Assembly: GCA_965215195.1 (NCBI GenBank)
Contig: CBDCDC010000002.1
Coordinates: 2,848,001 to 2,912,000 of the forward strand
Source: Candidatus Latescibacterota bacterium
Lineage (GTDB): Bacteria > Latescibacterota > UBA2968 > UBA8231
Length of the DNA: 64,000 nt
Direction: 5' to 3'
In this document: piece after piece, positions 96-48,115 of the stretch
How positions within the stretch are numbered: the stretch's first letter is position 1
Layout: the number at the start of each line of letters is the position of its first letter
Notes under the pieces: generated by a model
The model's input: the letters and a program-made list of their open reading frames with translations, nothing else
What the model was told of the DNA's origin: nothing
Databases searched by the model: none
Program-made: the position numbers and the translations under genes

Positions 96-1223
96 ATGGA
101 AATTCTCCGCGAATTCCTCACTACCACGGCCGTGGCCAACATGTCGGGCGGCAACCTGCTGATGATCATTATCGGCGCGATCTTCATCTCTCTGGCCATC
201 CGCAAAGACTACGAGCCGCTGCTGCTGTTGCCGATTGGCTTCGGCTGCATCGTGGGTAATCTCCCGTCTATCTCCAGCATGGCCATCGGCGTGTACGACC
301 AAGGCAGCGTACTCTACTACATCTACTTTGGCGTCAGCCAAGGCATCTTCCCGCCGCTTATTTTTCTCGGCATTGGCGCGATGACCGACTTCTCGACCAT
401 GCTCTCTAGCCCCCGACTGGTGCTGCTGGGGGCAGCGGCGCAGACGGGCATTTTCCTCACCTTGATCGGCGCGCTCTATTTGGGTTTTACGCCGGCCGAG
501 TCCGGGGCCATCGGCATTATCGGCGGGGCCGATGGGCCGACGGCGATCTTCCTCGCGGCCAAGCTGGCTCCCCACCTGCTCGGGGCCATTGCCATTGCCG
601 CGTACTCCTACATGGCCCTCGTCCCGGTCATCCAGCCGCCGGTGATGAGGCTGTTGACCACGCGCAAGGAGCGGCTGATTCGCATGAAGCCCCCGCGCGA
701 GGTCTCCCAGCGCGAAAAGATCATCTTTCCCATCGCCGCCTTCCTCATCTGCGCGCTCCTCGCCCCGGGCGCGATCGGGCTGCTCGGCATGCTGTTCTTC
801 GGCAATCTGCTCAAGGAAAGCGGCGTCACCGAGCGCTTGGCCCAGACCGCCCGCACTTCGATGGTCGATATCGTCACCATTCTCCTCGGGTTTTCGGTCG
901 GCTGCTCGACCCAAGCCCAGACCTTTCTCACGCCGCAGTCAGTACTCATCTTCAGCCTCGGGGCCCTGTCCTTTGCCGTCGCCACGGCCAGCGGCGTGCT
1001 CTTTGCCAAGTTTTTGAACCTCTTCACCAAAGACAAAATCAACCCCCTCGTCGGCGCGGCCGGGGTCTCGGCTGTGCCCGACTCGGCCCGCGTAGTGCAG
1101 ATGATGGGCCAGCGCGAAGACCCCAATAACTACCTCCTGATGCACGCGATGGCCCCCAATGTCGCCGGGGTCATCGGCTCGGCCGTAGGTGCTGGGGTCT
1201 TGTGGTCCGTGCTGGTGGGATAG
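96..1223 (+). CDS. oadB: Na+-translocating decarboxylase beta subunit
   Basis: Highly hydrophobic; EPLLLLPIGFG, IGIIGGADGPTAIF, GAAGVSAVP, HAMAPNVAGVIGS motifs. Confidence 0.95.
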   Translation: MEILREFLTTTAVANMSGGNLLMIIIGAIFISLAIRKDYEPLLLLPIGFGCIVGNLPSISSMAIGVYDQGSVLYYIYFGVSQGIFPPLIFLGIGAMTDFSTMLSSPRLVLLGAAAQTGIFLTLIGALYLGFTPAESGAIGIIGGADGPTAIFLAAKLAPHLLGAIAIAAYSYMALVPVIQPPVMRLLTTRKERLIRMKPPREVSQREKIIFPIAAFLICALLAPGAIGLLGMLFFGNLLKESGVTERLAQTARTSMVDIVTILLGFSVGCSTQAQTFLTPQSVLIFSLGALSFAVATASGVLFAKFLNLFTKDKINPLVGAAGVSAVPDSARVVQMMGQREDPNNYLLMHAMAPNVAGVIGSAVGAGVLWSVLVG

Positions 1224-1240
1224 ACAACGAGGATGCGACC

Positions 1241-3040
1241 GTGAACAAGAAGAAAATTCGCTTCATGTGTACCGCCTTCCGCGACGGCTTCCAGTCGGTC
1301 TATGGAGCGCGCGTTTTCACGTCCGATTTTCTGCCCGCTGTCGCCGCGGCCAAGGAAGCCGGCATCGACTATTTTGAGGCCGGCGGCGGGGCCTGTTTCC
1401 AGTCGTTTTACTTTTACTGCGGCGAAGATGCCTTTGCCGCGATGGACGCCTTTCGCGCAACGGCTGGCCCGGACGCCGACCTCCAGACCTTGGCGCGGGG
1501 GGTCAACGTGGTCGGCCTCGAATCGCAGCCGAGCGACATCATCAAGCTCCACGCCGATCTCTTCAAAAAGCACGGCATCACGACCATCCGCAATTTTGAC
1601 GCGCTCAACGACGTCGACAACCTCATCTACTCGGGGCAGTGCATTGTGGATGCCGGGCTCAAACACCAAGTCTGCATCACCCTGATGGAGCTGCCCCCGG
1701 GCTGCTCGGGTGCCCACGACGCGGCCTTCTACACCAATACCTTGCGCCAGATACTAGACGCTGGCATCCCGTACGACGCGGTCTGTTTCAAGGATGCCTC
1801 GGGCACGGCCGTGCCCGCCAAAGTCTATGAGACGATCTCCAAGGCGCGTCTCATGCTGCCCGAGGACACCTTCATCCACTTCCACACGCACGAAACAGCC
1901 GGCATTGGCGTCAGTGCCAACATGGCCGCCCTCGACGCTGGTGCCGACGCCATTGACCTGTCTATGGCCCCCTGCTCCGGCGGCACCTGTCAGCCCGACA
2001 TCATCGTCATGTGGCACGCGCTGCGCGGCTCCGACTACGACCTCGACATAGATATCGACAAGATCCGCGACGCCGAGGAAGTCTTCAAGGAGTGCATGGC
2101 CTCCTACTTCCTGCCGCCCGAGGCCGTGGCCGTGGAGCCGATGATTCCCTGGAGTCCCATGCCCGGCGGCGCACTAACGGCCAACACCCAGATGCTGCGC
2201 GACAACGGCGTCATGGACAAGTACCCGGATATGATCAAGGCCATGCGCGAGGTCGTCGAAAAGGGCGGGTTCGGCACCTCGGTGACGCCAGTCTCGCAAT
2301 TTTACTTTCAGCAGGCTTTCAACAACGTCATGTTCGGCCCTTGGGAGCGGATCGCCGCGCCCTACGGCCAGATGGTCTTGGGCTACTTCGGCAAGACGCC
2401 AGTCGCGCCCGACCCCTCGGTCGTGGAGATCGCCGCCCAGCAGCTCGATCTAGAGCCAACGACCGAAAAGCCGCTCGAACGCAACGACGCCGACCCGACA
2501 AAGGGCGTCGAACCGGCCCGCAAACAACTGCGCGAAGCCGGCCTCGCCGAGACGGACGAAAACATTTTCATCGTCGCTACCTGCAAAGACAAGGGTCTGG
2601 CCTTCCTCAAGGGAGAAGGCGAGATCGGCGTGCGCAAGGTAGAAAAAGGGCAAGAGAAGGAAGCACCGGCCGACGGGCCGGCGCACTATGCGCTCACCGT
2701 CGATGGCCGCCGCTATGCCGTAGCCATTGACGGCGACACGGCCACGGTTGATGGCCGCCGCTTCCAAGTCAGCTTGGCTCCAGCAACCGCTGGGGCGGCT
2801 CCCCCGCCAGCACCCAAGGCCGAAGGGGGTACGCCGGTGCAAGCCCAGATGCCCGGGAAAGTAATCCGCCACCTTGCCCAAGTCGGCGATCGCGTAGAAG
2901 CGGGCGACGGAATCATAGTGCTCGAAGCCATGAAGATGGAAATGCCGGTAACAGCCCCCGTCGGGGGCATGGTCGCCGATATTTTGGTGAATGCCGGGGA
3001 TCAGGTGGCCGACGGACAGGTGCTGGCGCACATACGCTGA
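1241..3040 (+). CDS. oadA: Oxaloacetate decarboxylase alpha / pyruvate carboxylase B-like carboxyltransferase with biotinyl domain
   Basis: RDGFQS, HFHTH, MPGG, VTPVSQ and C-terminal EAMKM biotinylation motif; GTG start at 1241 with GAGGA RBS. Confidence 0.88.
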   Translation: MNKKKIRFMCTAFRDGFQSVYGARVFTSDFLPAVAAAKEAGIDYFEAGGGACFQSFYFYCGEDAFAAMDAFRATAGPDADLQTLARGVNVVGLESQPSDIIKLHADLFKKHGITTIRNFDALNDVDNLIYSGQCIVDAGLKHQVCITLMELPPGCSGAHDAAFYTNTLRQILDAGIPYDAVCFKDASGTAVPAKVYETISKARLMLPEDTFIHFHTHETAGIGVSANMAALDAGADAIDLSMAPCSGGTCQPDIIVMWHALRGSDYDLDIDIDKIRDAEEVFKECMASYFLPPEAVAVEPMIPWSPMPGGALTANTQMLRDNGVMDKYPDMIKAMREVVEKGGFGTSVTPVSQFYFQQAFNNVMFGPWERIAAPYGQMVLGYFGKTPVAPDPSVVEIAAQQLDLEPTTEKPLERNDADPTKGVEPARKQLREAGLAETDENIFIVATCKDKGLAFLKGEGEIGVRKVEKGQEKEAPADGPAHYALTVDGRRYAVAIDGDTATVDGRRFQVSLAPATAGAAPPPAPKAEGGTPVQAQMPGKVIRHLAQVGDRVEAGDGIIVLEAMKMEMPVTAPVGGMVADILVNAGDQVADGQVLAHIR

Positions 3041-3083
3041 CGATTACTCCACAGCGGACCAAACCGTCCCTACGGCATGGCTT

Positions 3084-3255
3084 GTGAAACAAACTGCTTA
3101 CATTGAAACGTCGATCTTCAGCTTCTACTATGCGCGTCGCACTGAGCCAGCAGCTATTGCGATGCGCGATTTGAATCATTTCAAAAACTGCGTGATTCTG
3201 CTCATGCAGAAAATTTGATATCTTCGTCAGAATAAGGCTTCCAAATGCGAACGCT
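3084..3255 (+). pseudogene. Eroded PIN-domain toxin remnant
   Basis: VKQTAYIETSIFSFYYARRTEP resembles the N-terminus of a PIN family; downstream frame-shifted fragments DSAH, KFDIFV, LPNAN. Confidence 0.5.
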
Positions 3256-3257
3256 TC

Positions 3258-3965
3258 TCATGTTCCCACATCCCCGCTCCACACCTCGCGTTGCGTACCA
3301 TCGTCTTCGCGCAGCAGCAGTTGCCCGGCCGTGCCAAATCCCAGCACCACGCCCGCGTACTCGCCGACTGCGACGTACTGGCCCAAGTTGGCGCAGTGAG
3401 ACTCCCACGCCGCACTCAGCGCGGCAAAGCCGCCTTTTTCCCAGCACCCGATCCACACCTGCAAATGCGCCAGCAGCTCGTCCAATGCCCGCTCGACATC
3501 GCGCTCGCTTCCCGTCTCAATCCGCAGCGAGGTAGCGGGCTGGCCGATGGACGCGGCCTCGTCGGCATCCATGTTGACGTTGAGGCCGATTCCAAGGACG
3601 ACCCCTTTGCAGCGCTCGGCCAAAATGCCGCAGATCTTGCGGCCACCCACTAGCACGTCGTTGGGCCACTTGGTCTGCGCCGCCAAGCCCTTGTCCTCCA
3701 AATAGGCCACCACACCCAAGGCAGCGGCCTGCGGCAGCGACAGGAGCTGCAACGGCGACGCATCGCTCCGCAACAGCACAGAAAAGGTCAGGTTGCGGCC
3801 GGGCCGGGCGAGCCACCGCCGCTCATAGCGGCCCCGGCCAGCGGTCTGGGAACGAGCGGCGAGCACGAAGCCATCGGGCAGGTCTCGGCTCGTGCGCAGC
3901 CACTCGACCAAGGTCGTATTGGTCGAAGACAGTTCGTCGTGCCATTGGGGTTTTTGGAATTGCAT
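3258..3965 (-). CDS. birA: Biotin-protein ligase (no N-terminal HTH)
   Basis: QTAGRGR, KWPND, KICGIL, GIGLNVN motifs; next to a biotin-dependent enzyme. Confidence 0.93.
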   Translation of the reverse strand: MQFQKPQWHDELSSTNTTLVEWLRTSRDLPDGFVLAARSQTAGRGRYERRWLARPGRNLTFSVLLRSDASPLQLLSLPQAAALGVVAYLEDKGLAAQTKWPNDVLVGGRKICGILAERCKGVVLGIGLNVNMDADEAASIGQPATSLRIETGSERDVERALDELLAHLQVWIGCWEKGGFAALSAAWESHCANLGQYVAVGEYAGVVLGFGTAGQLLLREDDGTQREVWSGDVGT

Positions 3966-4070
3966 CGCACCTAATGTAATGGACGCAGGTCGTGCGCCAG
4001 AAAGGCTCGCATTGACAATGAGCCGCGTCTTGGTGTCTTTTTGGACAAGTTTTTCTTAGGAGATGATCTC

Positions 4071-5450
4071 ATGCCTATTTCTAGACGCCAATTCCTCAAA
4101 AGCGCGGCCGCCGTTTCCACCGGCTTTGCCGGTCTCCATCGCCATATCGCTTGCAGCGGTCCAGTGCTCGAAAATAGCTTTGGGCCGCTCGTGCCCGACC
4201 CCGAAGGCATTCTCGACCTGCCCAAGGGCTTTAGCTATCGAGTTCTCTCGCGCGTTGGCGAACTCATGGACGATGGCCTGCGGTTGCCGGGCGCAGCCGA
4301 CGGGATGGCCGCTTTTCCCGGGCCAGAGGGCCGCATCGTTTTGGTGCGCAACCACGAGCTGAGCCCCGGGTCGAAGGAAGCCGGTGCCTTTGGCGACGGC
4401 AACGAAAACCTGGGCAAACTGCCCAAAGAAGACCTATACGACTGGGGCCGAGGCAAGATGCCGGGCTTGGGCGGCACCACGACCGTCGTGTACAACGCGC
4501 AAACCGGCGCAGTGGAGAGGGAGTTTCTCAGCTTGGCCGGCACTGCGGTCAACTGCGCCGGAGGACCAACCCCGTGGCATAGCTGGGTTAGCTGCGAAGA
4601 GACGACCCAGCGGATTGACGGGCCGATCGAAAAGGACCATGGCTACAACTTCGAGGTCCCCGCTACCGCAGAAATCCGCCGCGCCGCGCCAGTGCCGCTC
4701 AAGGCCATGGGGCGCTTCAAACACGAGGCCATCGCCGTGGATCCCCGCTCGGGAATCGTCTATCAGACCGAAGATACCAGCGACAGCTTGATCTACCGCT
4801 ACATCCCCGATGCACCGGGCAAACTAATAGCCGGGCGGCTGCAAGCCTTAGCCGTAATCGACCATCCCAGCTTGGATACCCGCAACTGGGAAAAAGTGCT
4901 GGTGCGCCCAAGGGAGCCGCTCGCCGTGCGCTGGGCCGACATAGAAAACGTCGAATCGCCAGACAACGACTTGCGCTTTCAGGGCTTTGACGGCAAGGGC
5001 TGCGCCCGCTTTGCCCGCGGCGAGGGCATGTGGTACGGCCGCGAAGCGGTTTACTTTGCTTGCACCAGCGGCGGCATAAAAAAGAAAGGCCAAATTTTCC
5101 GCTACCAGCCCAGCCCGCACGAGGGCACGGCCGATGAGAGCAAGGCACCGGGGACGCTCGAATTGTTCGTCGAGCCGAACGACGGCGACCTAGTCGACAA
5201 CGCCGATAACCTTACGGTCTCCCCCTTCGGCGACTTGATCGTCTGCGAAGACGGTAGCGGGGAAAACAATCTAGTCGGCGTAACGCCCGCAGGTCAGATC
5301 TACCGCTTCGCTCACAACCGCATGAACAATTCCGAATTCGCCGGCGCGACCTTCTCGCCCGATGGCCAAGTGCTCTTCGTCAATATCCAGCATCCCGGCA
5401 CTACGCTGGCTATCTACGGCCCTTGGGATCAGCGGCGGTCTGACGGTTAG
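4071..5450 (+). CDS. phoX: PhoX-family alkaline phosphatase, Tat-exported
   Basis: SRRQFLK twin-arginine signal; VRNHE, NCAGG.TPW..W.SCEE, GRFKHE, RGEG, DN, EFAG, NIQHPG motifs. Confidence 0.88.
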   Translation: MPISRRQFLKSAAAVSTGFAGLHRHIACSGPVLENSFGPLVPDPEGILDLPKGFSYRVLSRVGELMDDGLRLPGAADGMAAFPGPEGRIVLVRNHELSPGSKEAGAFGDGNENLGKLPKEDLYDWGRGKMPGLGGTTTVVYNAQTGAVEREFLSLAGTAVNCAGGPTPWHSWVSCEETTQRIDGPIEKDHGYNFEVPATAEIRRAAPVPLKAMGRFKHEAIAVDPRSGIVYQTEDTSDSLIYRYIPDAPGKLIAGRLQALAVIDHPSLDTRNWEKVLVRPREPLAVRWADIENVESPDNDLRFQGFDGKGCARFARGEGMWYGREAVYFACTSGGIKKKGQIFRYQPSPHEGTADESKAPGTLELFVEPNDGDLVDNADNLTVSPFGDLIVCEDGSGENNLVGVTPAGQIYRFAHNRMNNSEFAGATFSPDGQVLFVNIQHPGTTLAIYGPWDQRRSDG

Positions 5451-5531: not shown

Positions 5532-5811
5532 TTGGGTGTTCTGCACACAGGGGACAGTACCCGGAATTTTCAACAGCTTCTTAGAATTCTCTCCAAGGCT
5601 GGCCGCGCCCGAGTCCGGCAGGCGATACAGTGCTGTGTAGTATTCTGCACATGCCTTCCTGCGGTACGCGCTTGTTTTCTCTGAAAATTGGGCTGGCAAA
5701 GCACTGGTACGCTAATTGCAAGAACCTTGGGCCGATGGCCTACTTATATTTTTTGCTCCGCGAGGTGCTACCACGCCGATCCAACGCTCTAATGCGAAGG
5801 GAGCTATATAG

Positions 5812-8406
5812 TTGACGATCCTGTTTGACGATCTAAAGCAATCTGCTCTTGAATGGCGCAAGGGCGGATATGCTTGTGATGAGTATCCACTTATAGGCGA
5901 AATCCTCGCGTTCCAGAGGGAGACACAGGACGGCACCTCGACGCTCAAGTTCCTGCGCGATCCTCAGTTTCTCGCCCTTGAGGTGTACTGGTATGTCCGG
6001 CTCAAGCTGAATACTCCTCATATCATAGACCTCTACAAGCACTACTACGGAGAGGATAAGAGAACCTTTTTTGATTCCCTCGGTGTTCCCATGTCGAGAG
6101 ATGCTTTGGAGTGGGCGACCATAGAAGCCGTTCTCGAGAAAGTCAAAAAAGATCTCGGTTTTGTCACTGAAAAGAAGATCCAAGCATTGCACGAGGCCGC
6201 GATGCTGGACTATCCGAGTTACATCCTCGCCTTGGCAATGGGTGCCGGAAAAACCGTGCTGATCGGGGCGATTATCGCCACCGAGTTTGCCATGTCCCTG
6301 CGCTACCCCAAGGGCCACTTCATGAGAAACGCCCTCGTATTTGCACCCGGTACGACGATCATAGAATCCTTGCGCGAACTTAGCGATATGCCTTATGAAG
6401 ACATTCTACCACCCGCTCTCTATCGAGACTTTGCCGCCAATTTGAAAATTGAATACCCGAGCAACGAAAAGGACATACAGGCCCAGGCCAGCAGTAGCTA
6501 TAACCTGATTATCACCAACACCGAAAAAATCAGTCTGCGAGCGAAGCGGAGAAGCAATCAGACCGAACTAGATTTCAAGGAAAAGGAACTACAAGCGAAT
6601 TTGAGATTGCAAAAAATCGCCAGCCTGCCGAACCTCGGCGTCTTCTCCGATGAAGCGCATCACACCTATGGAAATACCTTCAATAAGCTAAAGCGGGTGC
6701 GGGAAACCATCAACTACATCCATGAGCAAACCCCCATTGTCGCAGTCGTAAACACCACCGGAACGCCTTATTACAGAAAGCAGCATCTGAAAGAAGTCAT
6801 TGTTTGGTATGGACTTGGGGACGGCATCAAGGACAACATTCTCAAAGATCTCAACGACGGGATTCACCAATACGACATCGGCGAGCAGTCGGAACAGAGC
6901 GTATTCAACGACATCATCCGGGAGTTTTTCAACCAATACGGCAAGGTCTCGCTTCCGAATGGAGCAAAGGCGAAAATTGCCTTTTACTTTAAGACACAGG
7001 ATCACTTGGACGATTCCCGTCCTTGGATTGAGCAGGCCATGACCGAAATGGGCGAAAGCGTCTCTCAGATATTGGTCAATACCCAGCAATCAAGTCCGAC
7101 GGAAGTAGATGAATTTAAGCGCCTCAACAACCCGGCTAATCAGAAGCGCGTGATTCTTCTGATTGGCAAAGGCGTTGAAGGATGGAACTGTCCTAGCCTG
7201 TTTGCCTGTGCGCTTATCAAAGAGCAGACGACGAGCAACAACTATGTCTTACAGGCAGCGACCCGGTGCCTGCGACAGGTGGCGGGAAACGGGCACTCGG
7301 CGAAGGTATTTCTCGATTACGGCAATGTGCGGACTCTAGACAAGGAACTAAAAGACAATTTTGGCACCGACCTCGACCTGCTCAGCGCGGCGTCAGGCGA
7401 CAAGGAGACCATAACGCTACGTATTGTAAAAACGGAATTGCCCAAACTGGAAATCACCCGCACGATCAAGCGGGCTGTCCGCACTAAAAAACCAAGCGGC
7501 TACATCGCCCTGAACAAACCGGAATCACAAGAAATTCCTGCAATACTACGCAGTGTTCTGACGCCGGATTTCAGCGGACCACGGGAAATCCTGATGCCGA
7601 CCGGTTACACTAAGGAGCTGCCGGCAGCAGCGGAAATGACGGATTGCCATACGGCCGCTTGGAAAATCGCCTCGCGCTACCACCTGCCGATAATGCCGAT
7701 TTTGAAGCAACTCAACAGCCTGTATCCCGAAAGAGAAATGCCGAATAGCCACTTATACGGGTTGTCCGCTCAGGTCGAGAAGCAGCAGGCGAACTACGAG
7801 ACCATAAAAGAAAACGTCACCGAGGCGATGGCCCTAATTCGGGTTCAGGATGAGAACGGAACGGACCTCTTTGAAAAGGACGAGGACGGCGTTTACGTCC
7901 ACCATCTGCGCCTGCTCAGGCGGACATACAACCGAATGAAAGACAGTGGGCTGTTTGCCGCCCACCAAGCGTATGCAGACGAACACGACTTGAGCTTCCA
8001 CTACACGCCGTACAACTTCGACAGCGAACCAGAGCGTTCTTTTTTTCGTCAAATTCTATCCGCGCTCAATACAAACCCCGATGACGTGGAGGCGTTTCTG
8101 TTTACGGGCGGATTGACCGACCCAAGGAAAACCGACTTTCATTTTGAATACATGGGTGAGGACAAGCGCTATCACCGCTACTTCCCCGACTTCGTGATTG
8201 TGAAGAAGACAGGTGAGTTCTATATTGTCGAGGTGAAAGCTGAGAATGAGCGCGGTGATCAAACGGTGAAAGAAAAGAAAAAGGCGGTGGAGAGGTTGCA
8301 GAAGATACAGCCTGATAAATTCAGATATAACGTCGTTTATACTTCTGGACCCACATTGGATGCGAAGTCCATCAATCCAATTGTCAATTGGATAAACTCA
8401 CAGTGA
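5812..8406 (+). CDS. res: Type III restriction enzyme Res subunit (SF2 helicase + PD-(D/E)XK nuclease)
   Basis: Walker A LAMGAGKT, DEAHH, EGWNCP, QAATRCLR, C-terminal FPDF...VEVK; in an operon with a Mod methyltransferase. Confidence 0.88.
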   Translation: MTILFDDLKQSALEWRKGGYACDEYPLIGEILAFQRETQDGTSTLKFLRDPQFLALEVYWYVRLKLNTPHIIDLYKHYYGEDKRTFFDSLGVPMSRDALEWATIEAVLEKVKKDLGFVTEKKIQALHEAAMLDYPSYILALAMGAGKTVLIGAIIATEFAMSLRYPKGHFMRNALVFAPGTTIIESLRELSDMPYEDILPPALYRDFAANLKIEYPSNEKDIQAQASSSYNLIITNTEKISLRAKRRSNQTELDFKEKELQANLRLQKIASLPNLGVFSDEAHHTYGNTFNKLKRVRETINYIHEQTPIVAVVNTTGTPYYRKQHLKEVIVWYGLGDGIKDNILKDLNDGIHQYDIGEQSEQSVFNDIIREFFNQYGKVSLPNGAKAKIAFYFKTQDHLDDSRPWIEQAMTEMGESVSQILVNTQQSSPTEVDEFKRLNNPANQKRVILLIGKGVEGWNCPSLFACALIKEQTTSNNYVLQAATRCLRQVAGNGHSAKVFLDYGNVRTLDKELKDNFGTDLDLLSAASGDKETITLRIVKTELPKLEITRTIKRAVRTKKPSGYIALNKPESQEIPAILRSVLTPDFSGPREILMPTGYTKELPAAAEMTDCHTAAWKIASRYHLPIMPILKQLNSLYPEREMPNSHLYGLSAQVEKQQANYETIKENVTEAMALIRVQDENGTDLFEKDEDGVYVHHLRLLRRTYNRMKDSGLFAAHQAYADEHDLSFHYTPYNFDSEPERSFFRQILSALNTNPDDVEAFLFTGGLTDPRKTDFHFEYMGEDKRYHRYFPDFVIVKKTGEFYIVEVKAENERGDQTVKEKKKAVERLQKIQPDKFRYNVVYTSGPTLDAKSINPIVNWINSQ

Positions 8407-8418
8407 GGAGACGTACGC

Positions 8419-8826
8419 ATGAAAGCCTATCATTTATTTATCAGCCACTCTTGGACATACGCCGACCAATATAAGAATTTGGTCAATCTATTGGATCAGG
8501 CCAAGAACTTCCACTATCACAATTACTCTATACCTAAAGATAACCCTGCCCATGTTGGCTCAGATAGGGAATTATCCAAGGCAATTCACAATCAAATGCA
8601 GCCGTGTGGCATCGTCATCGTTCTAGCGGGTGTATATGCTAGTTACAGCAAATGGATAGACAAAGAAATTAAAATTGCTAGAAGCAGCTTTTCGAGGCCA
8701 AAACCTATTCTAGCCATAGAGCCTTGGGGGAAAGAGAAAACTTCTTCGGTCGTCAAGGAAAGTGCCAACCAGATCGTTGGATGGAATACCGAAAGTATTG
8801 TCTCGGCAATAAGGGAGTTGGCATAA
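8419..8826 (+). CDS. TIR-like domain protein (MTH538/DUF1863, ThsB-like)
   Basis: LFISHSW start, NYS.P, SKWIDKEI with putative catalytic Glu, KPILAI, VGWNTESIVSAI. Confidence 0.85.
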   Translation: MKAYHLFISHSWTYADQYKNLVNLLDQAKNFHYHNYSIPKDNPAHVGSDRELSKAIHNQMQPCGIVIVLAGVYASYSKWIDKEIKIARSSFSRPKPILAIEPWGKEKTSSVVKESANQIVGWNTESIVSAIRELA

Positions 8827-9287
8827 TGGACGAAAAAAGACAGGAGCTTTTGGAAATATATAAGCTCCACGCCGAACTTGCGGATAGGGTGAGCCAGAGG
8901 CGTGAAGGAGCGAATAGGCTTTTTGTAAGCCTGTTGACGGGAACTTTAATTTTTCTCGCTGCATTTCTTAGATATGGCACAGGGACCATGCCTGTCGATG
9001 TAGTTTTGACAGCGGTTGGCATTTTTGGAGTTTTACTTTCTGCGTCGTGGTATATCATTATTCGCTCCTATCGCCAACTTAATTCGGGAAAATTTGCCGC
9101 TTTGCATGAGTTAGAAGAACAACTCGCCTATCCCTTTTTTAAGCGGGAGTGGAAGCTGTTGGGGATGGTAGAAAAACCGAAGACAAGTCGCTATTGGAAA
9201 CTCACAGTCGTTGAAACCTTTCTTCCCATTACCTTTGCTATTCTTTTTCTCGCTCTTATTATCATCTTTTTTAACATTTGCAGGTAG
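8826..9287 (+). CDS. Small multi-pass membrane protein, putative pore-type effector (RipA/8xMP-like)
   Basis: TAATG overlap with the TIR gene; ELADRVSQRREGANRLF, hydrophobic helices, W...IRSYRQLNSGKF..LHELEEQL..PF..EW pattern recalled from this family. Confidence 0.65.
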   Translation: MDEKRQELLEIYKLHAELADRVSQRREGANRLFVSLLTGTLIFLAAFLRYGTGTMPVDVVLTAVGIFGVLLSASWYIIIRSYRQLNSGKFAALHELEEQLAYPFFKREWKLLGMVEKPKTSRYWKLTVVETFLPITFAILFLALIIIFFNICR

Positions 9288-9290
9288 AAA

Positions 9291-11021
9291 ATGAAAAAAT
9301 TTCTCAAAATCGCCCCGCTCAAAGGTCGCCCCATGCTGCATTGGGTCGGCAAGAAACCACTAGAAGTCGTGCGGCATTTTCCGGCGCAGTTATGTGAGAC
9401 AGTGGACGTCGCCGATCCACCGCCCGAACCGTCCTACAAGGAATTTGCCAAGAGCAATTACAACCTGCTGTTTCACGGCGATAACAAGGAGATTCTCTCC
9501 TCGCTTTTGGTTGCCGGGTTTCGGGGCAAAATTGATCTAATCTATATTGATCCGCCGTTTGATTCTGGCGCGAATTACGTCCGCAAGGTGAAATTGCGCG
9601 GGCAGACCGCAAAATTGAAGGGCGAGGGGCATACTTCCATTGAGCAGGCGCAATACGAGGACATCTGGGCGAACGACAATTATCTGCAATTCATGTATGA
9701 GCGGCTGATTCTGATGCGGGAGTTGTTGAGCAATAAGGGGAGTATTTATCTCCATTGCGACTATCATAAGAGTCATCATCTGAGGTTTCTTCTAGATGAA
9801 GTATTTGGGGCAGAAAATTTTGGTAATGAGATTATATGGTGCTATACATTCCCTGGGCCGTCACCACAAAATTTTCCAAGAAAACATGACAATATATTGC
9901 GCTACAAGAAAATTAATGGCAATGCTATTTTTAATCCTGATGATATACGAATACCATACAAGGCTGATTTTACGGCAGTAAGAACAATTGGTGGCGCAGA
10001 GTATGATGAGGATTCCCAAATGGCTAGGCACGAGAAAGGTAAAGTTCCAGAATCGTGGTGGGTTGATATGTCAAATGTCTCTGCTTGGCGCGACGAACTT
10101 CTTGATTATCCCACCCAAAAACCCGAACGCCTGTTAAAACGCATCATCAAAGCCTCCAGTAACGAAGGCTCGATCGTCTTGGACTGCTTTTGCGGCTCCG
10201 GCACTACCGCCGCTGTTGCAGAAAAGCTAGGCCGTCGCTGGATTATGGCGGATCTGAACAAGGGTGCGATTCAAACTACTATCAAGCGATTGCAAGCTAT
10301 CATCGAGAAAAAGAATGGCGACCTTGTAGATAACGGGAGCGGGCTGATTCACTATCGGGTGAATAACTACGATTTTGCCAAAGACAACGGTATTAAAAAA
10401 ATCATCATATCAAAATATGGCATTCAAACAGACCGCAGCGACTTGTTCTTTGATGGAGTAGTCGGCGAACAGTTGGCGAAAATCATTGAACTGAATCGAC
10501 CACTAACTCGCCTAGACATTCAGATTATCAAGGACGAAATCGCTAACAACCGGCCTGACGAAACGCGCGACATTACCGTCTTTTGCAACGGATCGGAGTT
10601 GGAGATCATTGACGAACTCGCCCAAGGGAAAAATCCGATCAACAAAATCACCGTCCGAGACATTCAGCAGGATGGGATGATCACCAACCAGCCCGCAGAG
10701 GCGGACGTGAAAATTGCCAAATACGGCAAAAAGGCTACGGTCAAAATAGCTGACTATATCAGCCCTTCCATTCTTGCGAGAATGGAAATAGACAGAACGT
10801 TCTTTGACGAACAAATTGGCGACTTTCGGGCGCAGATCGACTACGTTCTGATTGACATCGACTACAACGGCGAGAATTTCAACATTGTGGCAAGCGATCT
10901 GCCGCAGAGGAAAACCGACTTTATCAAAGGTGAATACGAACTGACGCTTTCCCGCGCCGATGCGAAAGTGGCGGTGAAAATCGTCGATATGCTCGGAGAG
11001 GAAGTTGTCGAAGTCGCGTAG
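9291..11021 (+). CDS. mod: Type III R-M Mod subunit (amino-methyltransferase, beta class)
   Basis: IYIDPPF catalytic motif preceding YPTQKPE and DCFCGSGTT SAM-binding motif; AVKIVDMLGEE C-terminus. Confidence 0.9.
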   Translation: MKKFLKIAPLKGRPMLHWVGKKPLEVVRHFPAQLCETVDVADPPPEPSYKEFAKSNYNLLFHGDNKEILSSLLVAGFRGKIDLIYIDPPFDSGANYVRKVKLRGQTAKLKGEGHTSIEQAQYEDIWANDNYLQFMYERLILMRELLSNKGSIYLHCDYHKSHHLRFLLDEVFGAENFGNEIIWCYTFPGPSPQNFPRKHDNILRYKKINGNAIFNPDDIRIPYKADFTAVRTIGGAEYDEDSQMARHEKGKVPESWWVDMSNVSAWRDELLDYPTQKPERLLKRIIKASSNEGSIVLDCFCGSGTTAAVAEKLGRRWIMADLNKGAIQTTIKRLQAIIEKKNGDLVDNGSGLIHYRVNNYDFAKDNGIKKIIISKYGIQTDRSDLFFDGVVGEQLAKIIELNRPLTRLDIQIIKDEIANNRPDETRDITVFCNGSELEIIDELAQGKNPINKITVRDIQQDGMITNQPAEADVKIAKYGKKATVKIADYISPSILARMEIDRTFFDEQIGDFRAQIDYVLIDIDYNGENFNIVASDLPQRKTDFIKGEYELTLSRADAKVAVKIVDMLGEEVVEVA

Positions 11022-11093: not shown

Positions 11094-13016
11094 ATGAGCC
11101 AGCCTTGCATCAGCGACGCCTCTTCCCTCAAGCCGCCCCCAGCCGTTCTCGACGCCGCGCTCGGCCGGCTCGGCTTTGAGCGTTTTCTGCCCGGCCAACG
11201 CGAAGCCATCGAAACCCTGCTCTCCACTAGCCGCCTGCTCTTGGTCGCCCCCACCGGCGGCGGCAAGAGCTTGACCTACCAGCTACCCGCCGCTCTCCTG
11301 CCGGGCACGGCATTAGTGGTCTCGCCGCTCATCGCCCTAATGCACGATCAGGTCCAAGCGCTAGAGCGGCGCGGGCTCGCTGCCACGTACCTATCCTCGA
11401 CCCTTGATGGCGACGAGTTGCGCCGCCGCATGTACGGGATGGCCCAAGGCCGGTACAAACTGGTTTATGCCGCGCCCGAGCGGCTGACCTTCCCCGGCTT
11501 CCGCGCCATCCTGAGCCAGATTAAGTGTTCGCTCATTGCCGTGGACGAGGCCCACTGCATCAGCGAGTGGGGGCACGACTTCCGGCCCGAGTACTTGCAG
11601 ATTGGCGAGCTGGTACGCGAGTTGCCCAACTGTCGGGTTCTCGCCTGCACGGCCACGGCCACGCCGGTGGTGCGCGACGAGATCCTCGAGCGCCTCGGGC
11701 TACCGAGCGACACCCCCCAACTCGTGCATGGCTTTGCCCGGCCCAACCTCTCGCTCCGAGTCGCCGAAATCAACAGCGCGGCCGAGCGGCGACGGCGGAT
11801 CGACGCCCTGCTAGCCGAGGCCCTCAGCCCCTCCGGCCAGAAGACGGGTACTGCCATCGTCTATGCCCCTACCCGCAAGAGTACCGAGGAAGAAGCCACC
11901 CGCCTTCGAGGGGCCGGCTGGCTGGCGGCCGCCTATCACGCGGGCATGACCGGGCCGGACCGCGACGCCGTTCAGCGCGCCTTTATTCAAGACCAAGTCC
12001 AAATCGTGGTGGCTACCAATGCCTTTGGCATGGGCATTGACCGCGCCGATGTGCGCGCCATCGCCCATCTGGCTCCGCCCAGCTCAATTGAAGCGTACTA
12101 TCAGGAAGTAGGCCGGGCCGGGCGCGACGGCCAAGATGCCTACTGCCTGCTGCTGGTCTCCCCCGGCGACATGGCGCTGCGACGCCATCTAATCGAAAGC
12201 GATGCCAACGGCCGCGCCCCCGATCAAGCGGTGGTCCAGCACAAGTGGAATCTCTTTTTGGAACTGATGCGTTGGAGCGAGGGCGGGTCCTGCCGCCACG
12301 ACGCGATCCTGCGCTACTTTGGCGACGAGGAGGAAACCCTCTCGGGCTGCGGCCGCTGCGATGTCTGCCGTAGTCTATCCCATGCCGAGGCGGGCGACGC
12401 CACAGAGGTCGCCACCACCGTGCGCAAAGCCCTTTGCGCAGTAGCCCGTCTGCACGGACGCTACGGCATCCTAATGGCGGCCAAGCTCCTGCGCGGCACC
12501 AAGGACGCCCGCCTTGTACGCGATGGCCTAGATCGGACCCCGACCTTTGGCACCCTCAAGGGACATTCTGAGCGGTGGCTTTTGCAGCTTTTGCGCCGGC
12601 TGGTCACGGCCGGTTGGGTCGATTTCTTCGGTGGCGAGCGGCCGGTCGTAGTCCTCACTGAAGAGGGACGCCAAGTCATTCACGCCGAGCGGCCCGTGCG
12701 CCTGCTCCTGCCGCCGAAGTCGGCCCCGCTCCCGGCATCCCGCACCGGGCGCGTCCGCCTTCGCACCCCCGACCCCAGCGGGGAATTCGACGAAAAAGCT
12801 CAAGCCCTCTTTGATGCACTGCGCCATTACCGCATGACGCTGGCCCGCGACGAAAAGGTTCCTCCCTACGTCATCGCCAGCGACCGCACGCTGCGCGATA
12901 TCGTCCTGCTGCGGCCTGCCAACCTCGAAGAGCTCAAGCTGGCGCACGGCATCGGCCCGGCCAAAGCCGAAAAATACGGCGACGGCCTGCTCGCCATCGT
13001 CCAGCAGGCCGCCTAA
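11094..13016 (+). CDS. recQ: RecQ DNA helicase with RQC and HRDC domains
   Basis: PTGGGKS, DEAHCISEWGHDFRPEY, ATNAFGMGID, YYQEVGRAGRDG, Zn cysteines, VPPYVIA/HRDC. Confidence 0.93.
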   Translation: MSQPCISDASSLKPPPAVLDAALGRLGFERFLPGQREAIETLLSTSRLLLVAPTGGGKSLTYQLPAALLPGTALVVSPLIALMHDQVQALERRGLAATYLSSTLDGDELRRRMYGMAQGRYKLVYAAPERLTFPGFRAILSQIKCSLIAVDEAHCISEWGHDFRPEYLQIGELVRELPNCRVLACTATATPVVRDEILERLGLPSDTPQLVHGFARPNLSLRVAEINSAAERRRRIDALLAEALSPSGQKTGTAIVYAPTRKSTEEEATRLRGAGWLAAAYHAGMTGPDRDAVQRAFIQDQVQIVVATNAFGMGIDRADVRAIAHLAPPSSIEAYYQEVGRAGRDGQDAYCLLLVSPGDMALRRHLIESDANGRAPDQAVVQHKWNLFLELMRWSEGGSCRHDAILRYFGDEEETLSGCGRCDVCRSLSHAEAGDATEVATTVRKALCAVARLHGRYGILMAAKLLRGTKDARLVRDGLDRTPTFGTLKGHSERWLLQLLRRLVTAGWVDFFGGERPVVVLTEEGRQVIHAERPVRLLLPPKSAPLPASRTGRVRLRTPDPSGEFDEKAQALFDALRHYRMTLARDEKVPPYVIASDRTLRDIVLLRPANLEELKLAHGIGPAKAEKYGDGLLAIVQQAA

Positions 13017-13039: not shown

Positions 13040-14011
13040 ATGGCTACAGTTCGCTGGGGCATCATTGGCTGCGGCGACGTCACCGAAGTTAAGAGCGGCC
13101 CGGCCCTGTACAAGACCCGCGATTCCGAGCTGGTAGCGGTCATGCGCCGCAACGCGGACAAGGCCCGCGACTATGCCAAGCGCCACCGCGTACCCAGATG
13201 GTACGACCAAGCCGACGCACTCATCGGCGACCCGGACGTCGATGCGGTCTATATCGCAACGCCCCCGGACACCCACGCTCATTACGCGGCCCAAGTCGCC
13301 CGAGCCGGCAAACCTGTTTACGTCGAAAAGCCGATGGCGCACAACCACGGCGAGTGCTTGGCCATGATCGACGCCTGCTGTCGGGCCGGAGTGCCGCTGT
13401 TTGTGGCGTACTATCGCCGCGCCCTGCCTGCCTTCCTCAAGGTCAAGTCGCTGGTCGAGGAGGGGGCCATCGGGGAGGTGCGCTTTGCCTCCATCGCGCT
13501 CTGCCAACCCGCGTCAGAGAACCCGGACGACCTGCCCTGGCGCGTCGTCCCAGCCATTTCCGGCGGTGGCTACTTCTTCGACCTAGCCTCGCACCAGCTC
13601 GACTTCCTCGATTTTCTGCTCGGCCCAATCGCCCAAGCCTCGGGCTACGCGACCAACCAAGCAGGGTGCTACCAAGCCGAAGATGCCGTTACCGCCAGCT
13701 TTGCATTCGAGTCCGGCGCACTCGGCGCAGGAGTCTGGAACTTCGCCGCCGACCAGCACCGCGACCGGATCGAAGTCGTCGGCGACAAGGGCCGGATTGC
13801 CTTTTCCACTTTCGCCTTCGCCCCGGTCGAATTGGAGACGGACGCCGGCGCTGAGACCTTTGCCTTCAGTCCGCCCAAACACGTGCAGCAGCCTCTCATC
13901 CAAACCGTCGTCAATGCCCTGTTGGGCCGGGGCACTTGCCCCAGCACCGGCGCAAGCGCCGCCCGCACCAGTCGCATCATGGATCGGATCGTCCGCGGCC
14001 ATAGCATCTGA
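13040..14011 (+). CDS. Gfo/Idh/MocA oxidoreductase
   Basis: WGIIGCG, VYIATPP, EKPMA, DLASHQLD. Confidence 0.9.
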   Translation: MATVRWGIIGCGDVTEVKSGPALYKTRDSELVAVMRRNADKARDYAKRHRVPRWYDQADALIGDPDVDAVYIATPPDTHAHYAAQVARAGKPVYVEKPMAHNHGECLAMIDACCRAGVPLFVAYYRRALPAFLKVKSLVEEGAIGEVRFASIALCQPASENPDDLPWRVVPAISGGGYFFDLASHQLDFLDFLLGPIAQASGYATNQAGCYQAEDAVTASFAFESGALGAGVWNFAADQHRDRIEVVGDKGRIAFSTFAFAPVELETDAGAETFAFSPPKHVQQPLIQTVVNALLGRGTCPSTGASAARTSRIMDRIVRGHSI

Positions 14012-28505: not shown

Positions 28506-29117
28506 TTGATCATGGATGCATTCGTATTTGAGGAAATGCTATCGGAGCTGTGTCAGCACCTAACATCCGAGGCGCAACAAGGCGCGACGTATGAGCGAGC
28601 CAGCGACTTCGAGGATAGGGTAAGGCTTGAGCTTGCGTCAATGCCCCAACTAGAGGCGGTGTCAATAGACTTCTCTCCCCATCCTCACCAATTCCCGGAT
28701 ATCATACTCGGCGCGTACGGCATAGAAGTAAAGTTCACAAAAGGCGATAGCTGGCGAAGCGTCGCCAACAGTGTCTTTGAAAGCACTCGTGATTCCTCGG
28801 TGACGAACATTTATGTGGTGTACGGGAAGATCGGCGGCCAACCTGAAGTTAAATGGGAAAAGTACGATGAGTGCGTCATCCATGTCCGCACATCTCACGT
28901 ACCGCGTTTCGAGATCGAAATAGGCAGTGACCGATCTCTGTTCGCTACAATGGGAATCTCGTATGCCGAGTTTCGCGCACTTTCGACCGAAGACCGGATG
29001 ATTCAAATTCGCAAGTATGCACGGAGTCGGCTGCGTCCTAACGAGCGGCTATGGTGGCTAGAAGAGTCTCGAACCGGCTTTGTTCAAAGAGTACTGGGGA
29101 TGTGTGGTTGCGCCTGA
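28506..29117 (+). CDS. Putative type II restriction endonuclease, probably C-terminally truncated
   Basis: FPDII...GIEVK PD-(D/E)XK motif, convergent with a C5 methyltransferase. Confidence 0.65.
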   Translation: MIMDAFVFEEMLSELCQHLTSEAQQGATYERASDFEDRVRLELASMPQLEAVSIDFSPHPHQFPDIILGAYGIEVKFTKGDSWRSVANSVFESTRDSSVTNIYVVYGKIGGQPEVKWEKYDECVIHVRTSHVPRFEIEIGSDRSLFATMGISYAEFRALSTEDRMIQIRKYARSRLRPNERLWWLEESRTGFVQRVLGMCGCA

Positions 29118-29159: not shown

Positions 29160-30413
29160 TCAGGATTGGATCCCATCGGAAGAACTATTCGGAGCCTGAT
29201 CTGTTTGTTTGCTAGGGCTTCGCCGGAAGCACCTGAGCACACTACATGCGACATGCCAAGCGAATACAGGAGGCACCGCATTGCCCACTTGTCGCTCGGT
29301 CTCCCTGAGACCTGACTGGAAGATAAAGCTATCGGGGAACGATTGTATCCGCGCAGCCTCCCTCATGGAAATGCGTCTCGGCAGCGAATAATGGAACTGA
29401 ATATTCCCGTGACACTCAGCGCGAATCGTGTGGGCCGGCCTGTAGGCGGTAAGCCTACGGTTGCCCTGCTCTGGGCTAGGGTTTGCCCGGCTCCATATGT
29501 GGTTCAATTTGCGATTCTCTTGGACGGTTTCCAGATCGCCAATTGCCTCCTCGGCGGTTATCCACTCAGAGGGACTTCGTTCAGGTTCTGGAGGCGTGAA
29601 AGGGTCCACCTCACTGGAGGTACCTACGATAATGACTCTCTCTCGCATCTGAGGTACACCATAGTCGGCCACCCGATACAACTTGTAGCCGACTGCGTAG
29701 CCTAGACTGCCGAAGTCAGAAAGTACTTGGGCTAGTGCTTCTCGATTGTCCCCTATGAGGAGGCCCTTGACGTTCTCTGCGACAAAGACTCTTGGCCTGA
29801 TTCGTTTCACGCCCTCCACCATTGCCCGGTAAAGACCCGTCCGGGGGCCGTTAATGCCAGCCCTCTTGCCGTTAATGGAAATATCTTGGCAGGGAAATCC
29901 ACCAATCAGCACATCTGCTTCATTCGGCAGTTTATCAATAAAATCCCATACATCGCCACACGCGATGTCGTGCCCCAAGTTGTGTGTGTAGGTCTTGCAG
30001 GCGGCTCTGTTGTTGTCGTTGGACCAGGTTATCGAAAATGGAAGCTGTGGGTAGCTTCGGCCCATGAACTCAAAGCCACCAGTGAAGCCAAGATCCATAC
30101 CTCCACAACCTGAGAACATAGATACTACAGTGAGAGATTTCTTCAGACTAAGCTGAGGCACTCGGTCAAGAAGATGAGAGCCACGTCTAGGAATTTGCTC
30201 TAGATCAGGTGCGGTTTTGTACTGTGCACCTGCATCACGACTGTTGTAATTGAAGAGAGAAAGTTGGCGTCTTTCTGCGCAATATTTCGCTGCTGACCTG
30301 ATGAACCAATCCTTGAGAGTACTGCCAGATAACGCGAGAGCCGAATATAGCTCTCGCTTCTGTTCTGGATCGATCTCGATCACTATTCTCCCAGAGGGTG
30401 TTGGATTTGCCAT
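29160..30413 (-). CDS. DNA (cytosine-5) methyltransferase with N-terminal extension
   Basis: FSGCGG, GGFPCQ, ENVKG, QMRER, REAARIQSFP, GNAVPP motifs. Confidence 0.93.
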   Translation of the reverse strand: MANPTPSGRIVIEIDPEQKRELYSALALSGSTLKDWFIRSAAKYCAERRQLSLFNYNSRDAGAQYKTAPDLEQIPRRGSHLLDRVPQLSLKKSLTVVSMFSGCGGMDLGFTGGFEFMGRSYPQLPFSITWSNDNNRAACKTYTHNLGHDIACGDVWDFIDKLPNEADVLIGGFPCQDISINGKRAGINGPRTGLYRAMVEGVKRIRPRVFVAENVKGLLIGDNREALAQVLSDFGSLGYAVGYKLYRVADYGVPQMRERVIIVGTSSEVDPFTPPEPERSPSEWITAEEAIGDLETVQENRKLNHIWSRANPSPEQGNRRLTAYRPAHTIRAECHGNIQFHYSLPRRISMREAARIQSFPDSFIFQSGLRETERQVGNAVPPVFAWHVACSVLRCFRRSPSKQTDQAPNSSSDGIQS

Positions 30414-41692: not shown

Positions 41693-41761
41693 CCCTTTAG
41701 TCCTTTTACCCTTTAACCCTTGGCGGGGGTCTTGGGGCGTGTGGGGTGTCTTTTGGGGTAT

Positions 41762-41879
41762 GCCTTTTGGGATTTCGCCCCGATAAAGGGGTGTGCGTAG
41801 CCGCCCTTCGGGGGCGGAATCCCAAAAGGCGGGGGAGGGGCCCCTGTGAGGCCCGCGTGCGGGCCTCACGCGATTTTTA
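41762..41879 (+). other. Hairpin complex downstream of the kinase-FGE gene (terminator and/or DGR-type cis element)
   Basis: ~22-bp imperfect IR 41762-41783/41808-41830; 11-bp IR GTGAGGCCCGC-GT-GCGGGCCTCAC 41846-41869 followed by GCGATTTTTAT. Confidence 0.65.
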
Positions 41880-42008
41880 TCTTCCCCCCTTCCTGAGAGA
41901 AACTGCCACCCGCACGGCCGACGGCAACGTCGCCCCGCAAGCCAGCACATGGGACGCTCCTAAACGGCTGAGGTATGGCCAACCATCAACTCTGAGGAGG
42001 ATATACTT

Positions 42009-42893: not shown

Positions 42894-42992
42894 ATACACG
42901 ACAGTAACCTAAGTTGTGGTGCAGCCATGATTTAGATTTATTATCAACCTTCTTAGCTGTTGACGGCCAGCCTGAACGTACACGGAGAGGTT

Positions 42993-44618: not shown

Positions 44619-44621
44619 ACA

Positions 44622-45944: not shown

Positions 45945-45956
45945 AGGGTATTGGGC

Positions 45957-46910: not shown

Positions 46911-46911
46911 C

Positions 46912-47295
46912 ATGAACAAATCGACGTTTTCGGTGTATCGAATTGGGCGCAGCCCCGGGGTGGACATTCGGATTGACGATGATTCGGTCTCGCGCGTCCA
47001 CGCCGAGCTAATTGCGACCCAAAGCGGCTCTTACTACCTCACGGATTGCGCCAGCAGCGGGGGTACTTATGTGGCGCGAAATGGTGAGTGGAGACGCATT
47101 CGGCAGGAATTTATAAGCCCGACCGACGCGATTTTACTCGGGCATTACCAGACGACCGCACCCGCACTTATCGCGCTGGCCGCGCAAAAGGAGCGCCGTT
47201 CAGGAGGCGGCAAACCCACGCGGGAGGACAGCTTGCCCGTAGGTCCCGTGCGGCGCAATGTAGATACGGGTGAGATCATGGGCGAGGAGGATTGA
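46912..47295 (+). CDS. Stand-alone FHA domain protein
   Basis: IGRSP..DI.I.DDSVSRVHAEL...D.AS.GGT. Confidence 0.88.
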   Translation: MNKSTFSVYRIGRSPGVDIRIDDDSVSRVHAELIATQSGSYYLTDCASSGGTYVARNGEWRRIRQEFISPTDAILLGHYQTTAPALIALAAQKERRSGGGKPTREDSLPVGPVRRNVDTGEIMGEED

Positions 47296-47296
47296 C

Positions 47297-48082: not shown

Positions 48083-48115
48083 GTTGCTGGAACAACCCAA
48101 AAATAGGAGGGCACC

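Follow-up and report, generated by a model that had tools for sequence, protein, structure and literature searches.

A stretch of 64,000 nt from a Candidatus Latescibacterota bacterium (CBDCDC010000002.1), referred to as the window and used for all coordinates unless another locus is named, contains a TIR-domain gene and a gene for a small membrane protein of the 8xMP family, which lie together inside a type III-like restriction-modification (R-M) operon. Four genes on the same strand, in the order res, TIR, 8xMP and mod, are tightly coupled and cover 5.2 kb at 5812-11021. The res gene stops with TGA at 8406 and is followed by a 12-nt spacer containing GGAG, after which the TIR gene starts with ATG at 8419. 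Its TAA stop codon (8824-8826) overlaps the ATG of the 8xMP gene (8826) as TAATG (8824-8828), and the ATG of mod at 9291 follows 3 nt behind the 8xMP stop at 9287. The close coupling reported in the initial annotation of the window was confirmed at all of these junctions. The automatic open reading frame (ORF) call opens the membrane ORF at TTG 8724. As all 18 rows of an alignment of relatives have their first Met in the position of ATG 8826, the membrane protein was taken to be 153 amino acids (aa) long.

The GC content drops from about 0.62 outside to 0.42-0.53 within the island that holds the four genes. It amounts to 0.503 for res, 0.422 for the TIR gene, 0.431 for the 8xMP gene and 0.470 for mod, while the flanking phoX-like gene and recQ have 0.61 and 0.66, respectively. 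By these values, the TIR and 8xMP genes are AT-richer than res and mod, as had been noticed at the outset, and the island in its entirety has a lower GC content than the genome. The island is also present in two loci from Latescibacterota metagenome-assembled genomes (MAGs), L003 and L044. The flanking genes common to the window and both loci (oadA-like, birA, phoX-like, recQ and a Gfo-family gene) show 80-93% aa identity to those of the window and, thus, all three represent one chromosomal site. In comparison with L003 and L044, DNA homology to the island begins at about 5596-5609 and stops at 11019-11021. No direct or inverted repeats flanking the island stood out in a search of its borders. 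Promoter and terminator scans yielded counts of 10 versus 5.5 in shuffled sequence and 10 versus 7.4, respectively, and since these are near the shuffle expectation, they say nothing on internal promoters.

The first gene of the enclosed pair encodes a ThsB-type TIR protein. It matched Pfam ThsB_TIR (PF08937) with an E-value of 4.1e-17 and 62.8 bits against a cut-off of 21.2, and the PADLOC model ThsB with 3.1e-10. The fold of its AlphaFold2 (AF2) model, with a predicted local distance difference test score (pLDDT) of 87.8, matches MTH538, the ThsB proteins of B. cereus and E. coli and the TIR domain of SARM1. The motif WIDKE occupies residues 79-83, and E83 is invariant in an alignment of 18 sequences (A2) as well as in a further one (A4) that includes TIRs adjoining caspase and DUF4231 genes. 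A word-index search gave 2446 TIR matches, and the family was found on plasmids in 104 records.

The second gene encodes a protein that matched Pfam 8xMP (PF24838, 'octameric membrane protein family') with 2.6e-35 and 121.6 bits against a cut-off of 30, as did 62 out of 62 aligned diverse relatives. Three hydrophobic segments were located by a hydropathy scan at about 32-50, 55-79 and 127-152. In the AF2 model (pLDDT 92.5) helices extend over residues 3-50, 57-97, 104-111 and 120-152: a long N-terminal helix runs into the first transmembrane (TM) segment, TM2 continues into a cytoplasmic helix, and a short helix precedes TM3. The family and structure searches on both ORFs bear out the initial description of a TIR protein next to a multi-TM protein, which here has three TM segments. 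A SLATT identity was rejected, as NCBIfam SLATT_1 reached only E 0.097 and 12.6 bits against a cut-off of 41 and Pfam SLATT_5 was matched by 2 of the 62 relatives with a best E of 0.027. DUF2270 was discarded as well, being absent among the 25 families listed for the 62 relatives. No PADLOC model matched the protein, and a Foldseek search with its model gave no fold match (best E 0.76 against the PDB and 0.67 against the viral BFVD). An exhaustive search returned 2168 8xMP clusters at 50% identity (E ≤ 0.001) and a word-index search 1518 matches; none of the papers listed under the name or description of the family was relevant, and its Pfam id brought up none. A Pfam scan of 14 longer 8xMP relatives for TIR fusions revealed none with a TIR domain. 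An AAA_21 tail in one longer relative may result from read-through in gene calling.

Polar residues conserved among the 62 relatives are Y12, K13, R26, N30, Y82, N86, K89, E97, E108 and Y123. Nearly all conserved polar residues are situated on the N-terminal helix and on the segment 80-126, which were both placed in the cytoplasm because of the flanking Arg/Lys residues; E130 and P134 lie in TM3. A model of four 8xMP copies obtained a median score of 0.43 (runs 0.62, 0.23 and 0.43) compared with 0.00 for the best of three controls and was classified as 'supports binding'. In the calibration of the score, 20 of 30 proteins solved as one-chain pairs and 1 of 23 single-chain structures attained this mark; with a custom alignment and four copies, the calibration holds only roughly. 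Contact agreement between the runs is 81% or higher, with a partner pLDDT of 68 or more. Residues 104-108 of one copy touch residues 88-96 of the next, with the N-terminal helices side by side. Given this modelled interface, the conserved charged residues would lie between protomers. The model supports self-association of the protein and covers four copies, while an octamer is implied by the family name.

For a survey of the pair, 80 genome loci (L001-L080) of 16 kb each were fetched with the 8xMP alignment and compared with the four proteins of the window. Nearly all of them are MAGs, belonging to Poribacteria, Latescibacterota, Acidobacteriota, Chloroflexota, Alpha- and Gammaproteobacteria and cyanobacteria. 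In 48 loci the 8xMP gene is immediately preceded by a TIR-domain ORF; 46 of these were counted by script, one was added by eye (L048, with a split 8xMP gene) and one carries a TIR-Phage_Mu_F ORF that ends 5 nt before the 8xMP start (L011). The gaps between both genes are mostly -4 to +20 nt, and the TIR gene stands farther upstream in L002 and L005. On plasmids, an annotated TIR gene directly precedes an 8xMP relative in six of ten loci inspected, which stem from Polaromonas, Natronorubrum, Synechococcus, Paenarthrobacter, Novosphingobium and Haematospirillum. The other four loci have no annotated TIR directly upstream, one of them showing a weak TIR_2 match. The plasmid 8xMP relatives are only 33-41% identical and span an actinobacterium, a cyanobacterium, proteobacteria and a haloarchaeon. 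A phage collection contained one 8xMP match, a Haematospirillum plasmid record. The adjacency of TIR and 8xMP genes is far beyond chance, and the pair is a real, widespread and translationally coupled cassette. A lack of co-occurrence elsewhere, which the initial annotation had named as evidence against its proposal, does not apply.

The number of TIR genes differs at one and the same chromosomal site. It is one in the window, two in L003 (in the order res, two TIR genes, 8xMP, mod) and zero in L044, where res stops 13 nt before 8xMP and the window positions 8344-8784 are without a counterpart. Two TIR genes were also found in L001 and L021. One 8xMP protein with a changing number of TIRs fits TIRs that act as sensors and signal makers. 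Across the phyla of the 80 loci, 8xMP identities of 55-86% suggest recent horizontal spread. Poribacteria, Latescibacterota, Acidobacteriota, Chloroflexota and others are typical of marine sponge symbiont communities; if the genomes are of such origin, the cassette may recently have been passed around among members of one community. In a quick tree of 78 8xMP sequences (few columns, 45 of 74 forks open), copies without TIR take scattered positions in addition to one Poribacteria clade. Their distribution requires 18 changes, at least 6 of them forced by well-supported branches, and resembles secondary loss.

Several loci show variations of the cassette. The res-proximal TIR looks mosaic (window 8419-8826; L003 6509-6913; L001 6798-7199 and 7591-7998). 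Its last third in the window and L003 (EPWG.EKTSSVVKESANQIVGW) resembles the TIR type that adjoins 8xMP elsewhere, and the same part reads RPWTNE-ISPAVRDNADQVVKW in L001, L002, L005 and L021, which suggests exchange between TIR paralogues. The ORF upstream of 8xMP in L011 (6844-7995), within a res ... mod locus, fuses a ThsB-type TIR (residues 15-114) to a Phage_Mu_F-like domain (164-289). In L005, an 8xMP fragment of 31 residues (6062-6154) stands behind the TIR gene, and a second, complete 8xMP gene is situated about 1.8 kb away (8001-8453); this looks like an insertion into the cassette or a duplication of it. On plasmid pRL22b6 of Rhizobium leguminosarum (L094), only 2 nt separate an 8xMP gene from the preceding gene of a 1215-aa NB-ARC/WD40 protein (631-4278), which could possibly carry an N-terminal TIR or another signal-making domain. 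Eleven Poribacteria, which form one clade, keep an intact TIR-less 8xMP gene directly behind the gene of a copper-transporting P-type ATPase (Table 1).

Concerning the enclosing genes, Res exceeded the cut-off of Pfam ResIII. A TnsA-like N-terminal endonuclease match at residues 778-834 (3e-04) and a VRR-NUC match (0.075) remained below the cut-off, and NCBIfam gave a weak match to the BPTD_3080 family restriction endonuclease. None of the PADLOC restriction models matched, and no solved relative was found. Judged by these matches, Res is type III-like but divergent. Mod matched Pfam N6_N4_Mtase with 3e-48 and PADLOC MTase_III with 1.6e-69; with EcoP15I Mod as its best solved relative (7.7e-20), it can be assigned to the EcoP15I type. 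Orthologues of Res with 69-87% identity are encoded next to Mod orthologues in nine loci.

The position of the cassette between res and mod recurs: res, 8xMP and mod follow each other on one strand in 9 of the 80 loci, which derive from Latescibacterota, a Nitrospirales genome, a Ca. Oxydemutator genome and an unclassified bacterium. The same R-M family is uninterrupted in L061 (res-mod) and L004 (mod-res), with the TIR-8xMP pair 1.4-4.6 kb away. In another seven loci the cassette is placed between brxC and pglX of type 1 BREX, often beside a HEC-01A/HEC-01B ATPase pair; two of them (L014 and L080) contain 8xMP alone, without TIR. A DUF1156/HmaB-like methylase comes after 8xMP in L013, L019 and L023. 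Genes of type IIG enzymes stand before it in L009, L010, L026 and L055 and on the opposite strand in L027, L030, L038 and L039. Further defence neighbours are AAA_13, AAA_21/HEC-01, AIPR, GmrSD, a SIR2_2 protein, NYN and SNF2-NOV_C, and some copies adjoin plain housekeeping genes. On the Polaromonas plasmid, the pair directly follows a type I hsdR gene. These neighbourhoods are best read as those of a cassette that habitually lodges in methylation-based defence operons, often just upstream of the methylase gene.

Table 1. Genes of the island in the window and groups of 8xMP loci (L numbers) referred to in the text.
Feature	Position	Strand	Description
Island, four defence genes	5596..11021	+	between phoX-like (4041-5450) and recQ (11094-13016); delimited by GC drop and homology borders
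res, type III-like restriction subunit, 864 aa	5812..8406	+	SF2 helicase; ResIII 8.7e-07; weak C-terminal nuclease-like region
thsB-like TIR gene, 135 aa	8419..8826	+	ThsB_TIR; predicted signal-making enzyme with predicted catalytic Glu83 (WIDKE)
8xMP-family membrane protein, 153 aa	8826..9287	+	N-terminal cytoplasmic helix, TM1, TM2, cytoplasmic segment, TM3; predicted effector
mod, type III DNA adenine methyltransferase, 576 aa	9291..11021	+	N6_N4_Mtase, MTase_III, EcoP15I Mod
Loci nested between res and mod			L001, L002, L003, L005, L008, L011, L021, L044, L048
Loci nested in BREX	around 8001-8450 of each locus		L014, L017, L018, L025, L031, L041, L080
TIR-less Poribacteria loci			8xMP after copper ATPase: L047, L050, L052, L054, L056, L057, L058, L063, L064, L071, L077

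The TIR protein also has relatives with other partners. The closest plasmid TIRs that are not paired with 8xMP come from Thiolapillus pTBH13 (53% identity) and B. cereus pAH187_45 (51%), and both genes lie directly upstream of caspase-family genes. A TIR with 37% identity on an Enterobacter plasmid adjoins a DUF4231 gene, which is convergent on the opposite strand. Type IV Thoeris is described as a system in which the TIR makes N7-cADPR and thereby activates a caspase-like protease; the exchange E79Q in PsTIR is reported to abolish defence (bioRxiv 10.1101/2024.10.24.620036). One TIR clade with alternative neighbours is, according to the preprint of Yirmiya et al. (bioRxiv 10.64898/2025.12.03.692087), the pattern used to predict new Thoeris types. 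The occurrence of a single TIR clade next to 8xMP, caspase or DUF4231 genes corresponds to the effector swapping typical of Thoeris and fits signalling to exchangeable effectors.

Taken together, the TIR and 8xMP genes probably constitute a self-contained, horizontally mobile two-gene anti-phage cassette, a variant of the Thoeris family with 8xMP as its effector. The pair has a ThsB-type TIR with a Glu in the catalytic position, a conserved operon partner and a TIR clade in common with known types. Its effector lies outside the validated classes that were compared (SIR2-SLOG, Macro-TM, caspase-like, DUF2270, DUF6650, SLATT and CMP hydrolase), a set without the effectors of types III, IX, X and XI. 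In agreement with the initial annotation, no SIR2, SLOG or Macro domain was detected at E ≤ 1e-6 in the four island genes and in 44 of the 48 other window ORFs of at least 110 aa (all except 1202-3040, 3258-3965, 11094-13016 and 13040-14011). The Thoeris-like module proposed there gains from the pairing, the effector swapping and the modelled self-association and loses from the 30 of 80 8xMP genes without TIR. The attribute 'non-canonical' holds only in part: the concept of TIR plus membrane-effector systems is no longer new, as types II (Macro-TM), V (DUF2270) and VII (SLATT) have been described (bioRxiv 10.64898/2025.12.03.692087). The same preprint lists 29 Thoeris effector types, and the TIR-8xMP pairing may already be among them, or 8xMP may be its type IX effector, the nature of which is not stated there; its main text names neither 8xMP, RipA, restriction, methyltransferase nor 'embedded'.

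The course inferred for the cassette leads from a TIR-made signal through gating by this ligand and damage to the membrane to defence against phages. On infection, the ThsB-type TIR would use NAD+ to make an ADP-ribose-derived signal, with Glu83 as the predicted catalytic residue. The signal would bind to the conserved, positively charged cytoplasmic face of 8xMP at the protomer contacts, a face formed by the N-terminal helix and residues 80-126. A ring-like 8xMP oligomer, closed until then, would open or rearrange and breach the membrane barrier, so that the infected cell would stop or die ahead of phage release. The cassette would be co-transcribed and co-transferred with its methylation-based host operon and would not depend mechanically on the type III enzyme.

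Several observations weigh against this interpretation. Concerning the TIR, the fold equally matches nucleoside 2-deoxyribosyltransferase, DNPH1 and CMP N-glycosidase, and the protein is a bare 135-aa domain without a sensor module. In the MAGs L004, L008, L012, L021 (second copy), L034, L042 and L072 the adjacent TIRs are split or truncated. Concerning 8xMP, no solved relative was found with the single sequence (best E 0.33) or with a profile of 62 rows (best E 0.94), no ligand-binding domain is recognised in the protein, and the oligomer model clears the mark by a narrow margin (0.23 in one run). An Atlas cluster is labelled 'RipA family octameric membrane protein', an automatic name that suggests a possible link to RipA; RipA of Francisella is described as a membrane protein with a non-defence role. 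Of the 80 8xMP loci, 30, including L044, are without any TIR match within 16 kb. The persistence of 8xMP without an adjacent TIR is odd for a signal-dependent effector, unless TIRs encoded elsewhere serve it, and the Poribacteria copies could indicate a use of the family outside defence.

The initial annotation had proposed that the pair may guard the type III enzyme. In the manner of PrrC, which provides a precedent (PMC1484252), the pair would monitor the neighbouring methylation-based system and kill the cell when phage anti-restriction disables it. Both flanks belong to one such system in 16 of the 80 loci (res/mod in 9 and brxC/pglX in 7). A methylase gene is next downstream of 8xMP in the window and in the six res-mod loci L001, L002, L003, L007, L008 and L044, likewise in L013, L018, L023, L041 and L080, and it is separated from 8xMP by a short gap, a small ORF or a break in L005, L019, L025, L031 and L048. 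The pair behind hsdR on the Polaromonas plasmid also agrees with a guard, as does the fact that no fewer than two named phyla, Latescibacterota and Nitrospirota, and also a Ca. Oxydemutator genome contain the four-gene unit. However, nesting is absent in 64 of the 80 loci, closely similar copies (55-78% identity) adjoin housekeeping or other defence genes, and the R-M family exists in uninterrupted form in L061 and L004. While prrC is described as 'always linked' to R-M (PMC3458546), the TIR-8xMP pair is not. The nine res-mod cases may moreover stem from one insertion, as all of them are found in one half of the poorly resolved 8xMP tree. It is unlikely that host systems made up of unrelated enzymes have a physical latch in common, and staphylococcal Thoeris is reported to recognise infection via phage capsids (PMC12578639). 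A PrrC-like guard role is not supported, since most copies lie elsewhere (in BREX, by other methylases and by unrelated genes) and 30 of the 80 8xMP genes are without TIR; we regard it as improbable.

A broader version would make the cassette a sentinel of methylation-based immunity as such, which has settled repeatedly upstream of a methylase (type III-like R-M, type 1 BREX, DUF1156/Hma-like and type IIG) and opens the 8xMP pore. Its TIR would sense a failure sign common to these systems, e.g. a phage DNA mimic, a SAM-degrading (S-adenosylmethionine-degrading) enzyme or unmethylated replicating DNA. We assign a low probability to this possibility as well. If it were true, the cassette would be a general anti-anti-restriction alarm with an effector family not yet tied to immunity.

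The roles of both proteins might also be reversed. In that case, an 8xMP oligomer would be a membrane sensor or anchor, responding e.g. to phage DNA entry or envelope stress, and the TIR would be a killer that depletes NAD+ without any diffusible signal. Some bacterial TIRs are reported to deplete NAD+ as effectors (10.64898/2025.12.03.692087), the TIR has no sensor domain of its own, and the TAATG coupling fits proteins made in a fixed ratio. On the other hand, the nearest TIR relatives are partnered with caspase-family proteases and DUF4231 proteins, and the TIR of type IV is described as a signal maker. A TIR number of 0 to 2 per single 8xMP would be expected of sensors or signal makers and not of the effector, and 8xMP occurs alone in 30 of the 80 loci. 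A reversal of roles is thus doubtful.

Least probable is the explanation that there is no signalling pair, with 8xMP acting on its own (in a housekeeping or regulatory function or as a single-gene exclusion factor) and the TIR being a frequent, functionally separate neighbour, or with both forming an addiction module by which the island is stabilised: the 30 TIR-less 8xMP genes, 11 of them inherited with intact frames beside the copper ATPase gene of Poribacteria, the RipA label of the Atlas cluster and L044, which keeps res-8xMP-mod without TIR, would agree with it, but bacteria and haloarchaea alike keep the pairing at 33-41% identity, with frames that overlap or abut, most copies outside Poribacteria stand among defence genes, and the TIR-less copies are scattered like secondary losses in the quick, poorly resolved tree.

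If the Thoeris-type cassette with 8xMP as its effector is confirmed, a large protein family would be added to the effectors that answer TIR-made signals. With 135 and 153 aa, it would offer a compact system for studying how a nucleotide signal opens a membrane assembly. One cassette that colonises the interiors of unrelated methylation-based defence operons also bears on the building of defence islands and on the co-transfer of their parts.

Apart from the island, the window contains a C-5 cytosine DNA methylase gene at 29160-30413 on the minus strand (Pfam DNA_methylase, 6.3e-65) that adjoins a 203-aa ORF of no known family (28506-29117); the two may represent a second R-M system or an orphan methylase. 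A signalling cluster at 39425-52396 on the plus strand encodes three Ser/Thr kinases, one of them fused to an FGE-sulfatase domain, four FHA-domain proteins, two of which are fused to trypsin-like peptidases, a PP2C phosphatase and a MotA/ExbB-like protein. It is followed by a gene for a PnuC-type nicotinamide mononucleotide transporter (52406-53038, plus strand, 1.2e-51), which relates to NAD salvage.

Compared with the type III R-M system EcoP15I, the window encodes a Mod that resembles EcoP15I Mod and a Res with a ResIII helicase region and a weak C-terminal nuclease-like region. It differs in the order of res before mod with two foreign genes in between and in its divergent Res, for which neither a PADLOC restriction model nor a solved relative was matched. 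With PrrC/EcoprrI, the window shares the presence of a putative abortive-infection gene within an R-M cluster; EcoprrI is described as type Ic and PrrC as an anticodon nuclease. PrrC is further described as always R-M-linked and as kept silent by the R-M enzyme until a phage anti-restriction peptide activates it, whereas cassettes of the window type are nested in R-M or BREX in 16 of 80 loci and lack such an obligate linkage.

In type II Thoeris (TIR plus Macro-TM, with His-ADPR as the signal), a TIR signal is described to activate a membrane-pore effector, which is proposed only for the pair of the window; a Macro domain is present neither in 8xMP nor in the window ORFs scanned. Type IV Thoeris is close with regard to the TIR. 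The nearest TIRs outside 8xMP pairs (those of pTBH13 and pAH187_45, in putative type IV operons with the matching gene layout) have the same length and the same invariant Glu, the TIR gene lies directly upstream of the effector gene, and the reported catalytic E79 of PsTIR has a position similar to that of E83 in the window. The effector differs, being described as a soluble protease that cleaves EF-Tu in type IV and being a membrane protein in the window. Types V (TIR plus ThsF/DUF2270) and VII (TIR plus ThsH/SLATT) differ from the window in their effector family, as 8xMP (PF24838) is neither SLATT nor DUF2270. They are alike in combining a small TIR with a small multi-TM protein in a two-gene operon, and the TIR clade of the window also neighbours DUF4231 proteins. 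For ThsF and ThsH, oligomers in the membrane whose protomers have positively charged pockets between them are described (10.64898/2025.12.03.692087), an architecture that is likewise predicted for 8xMP, where it is modelled only.

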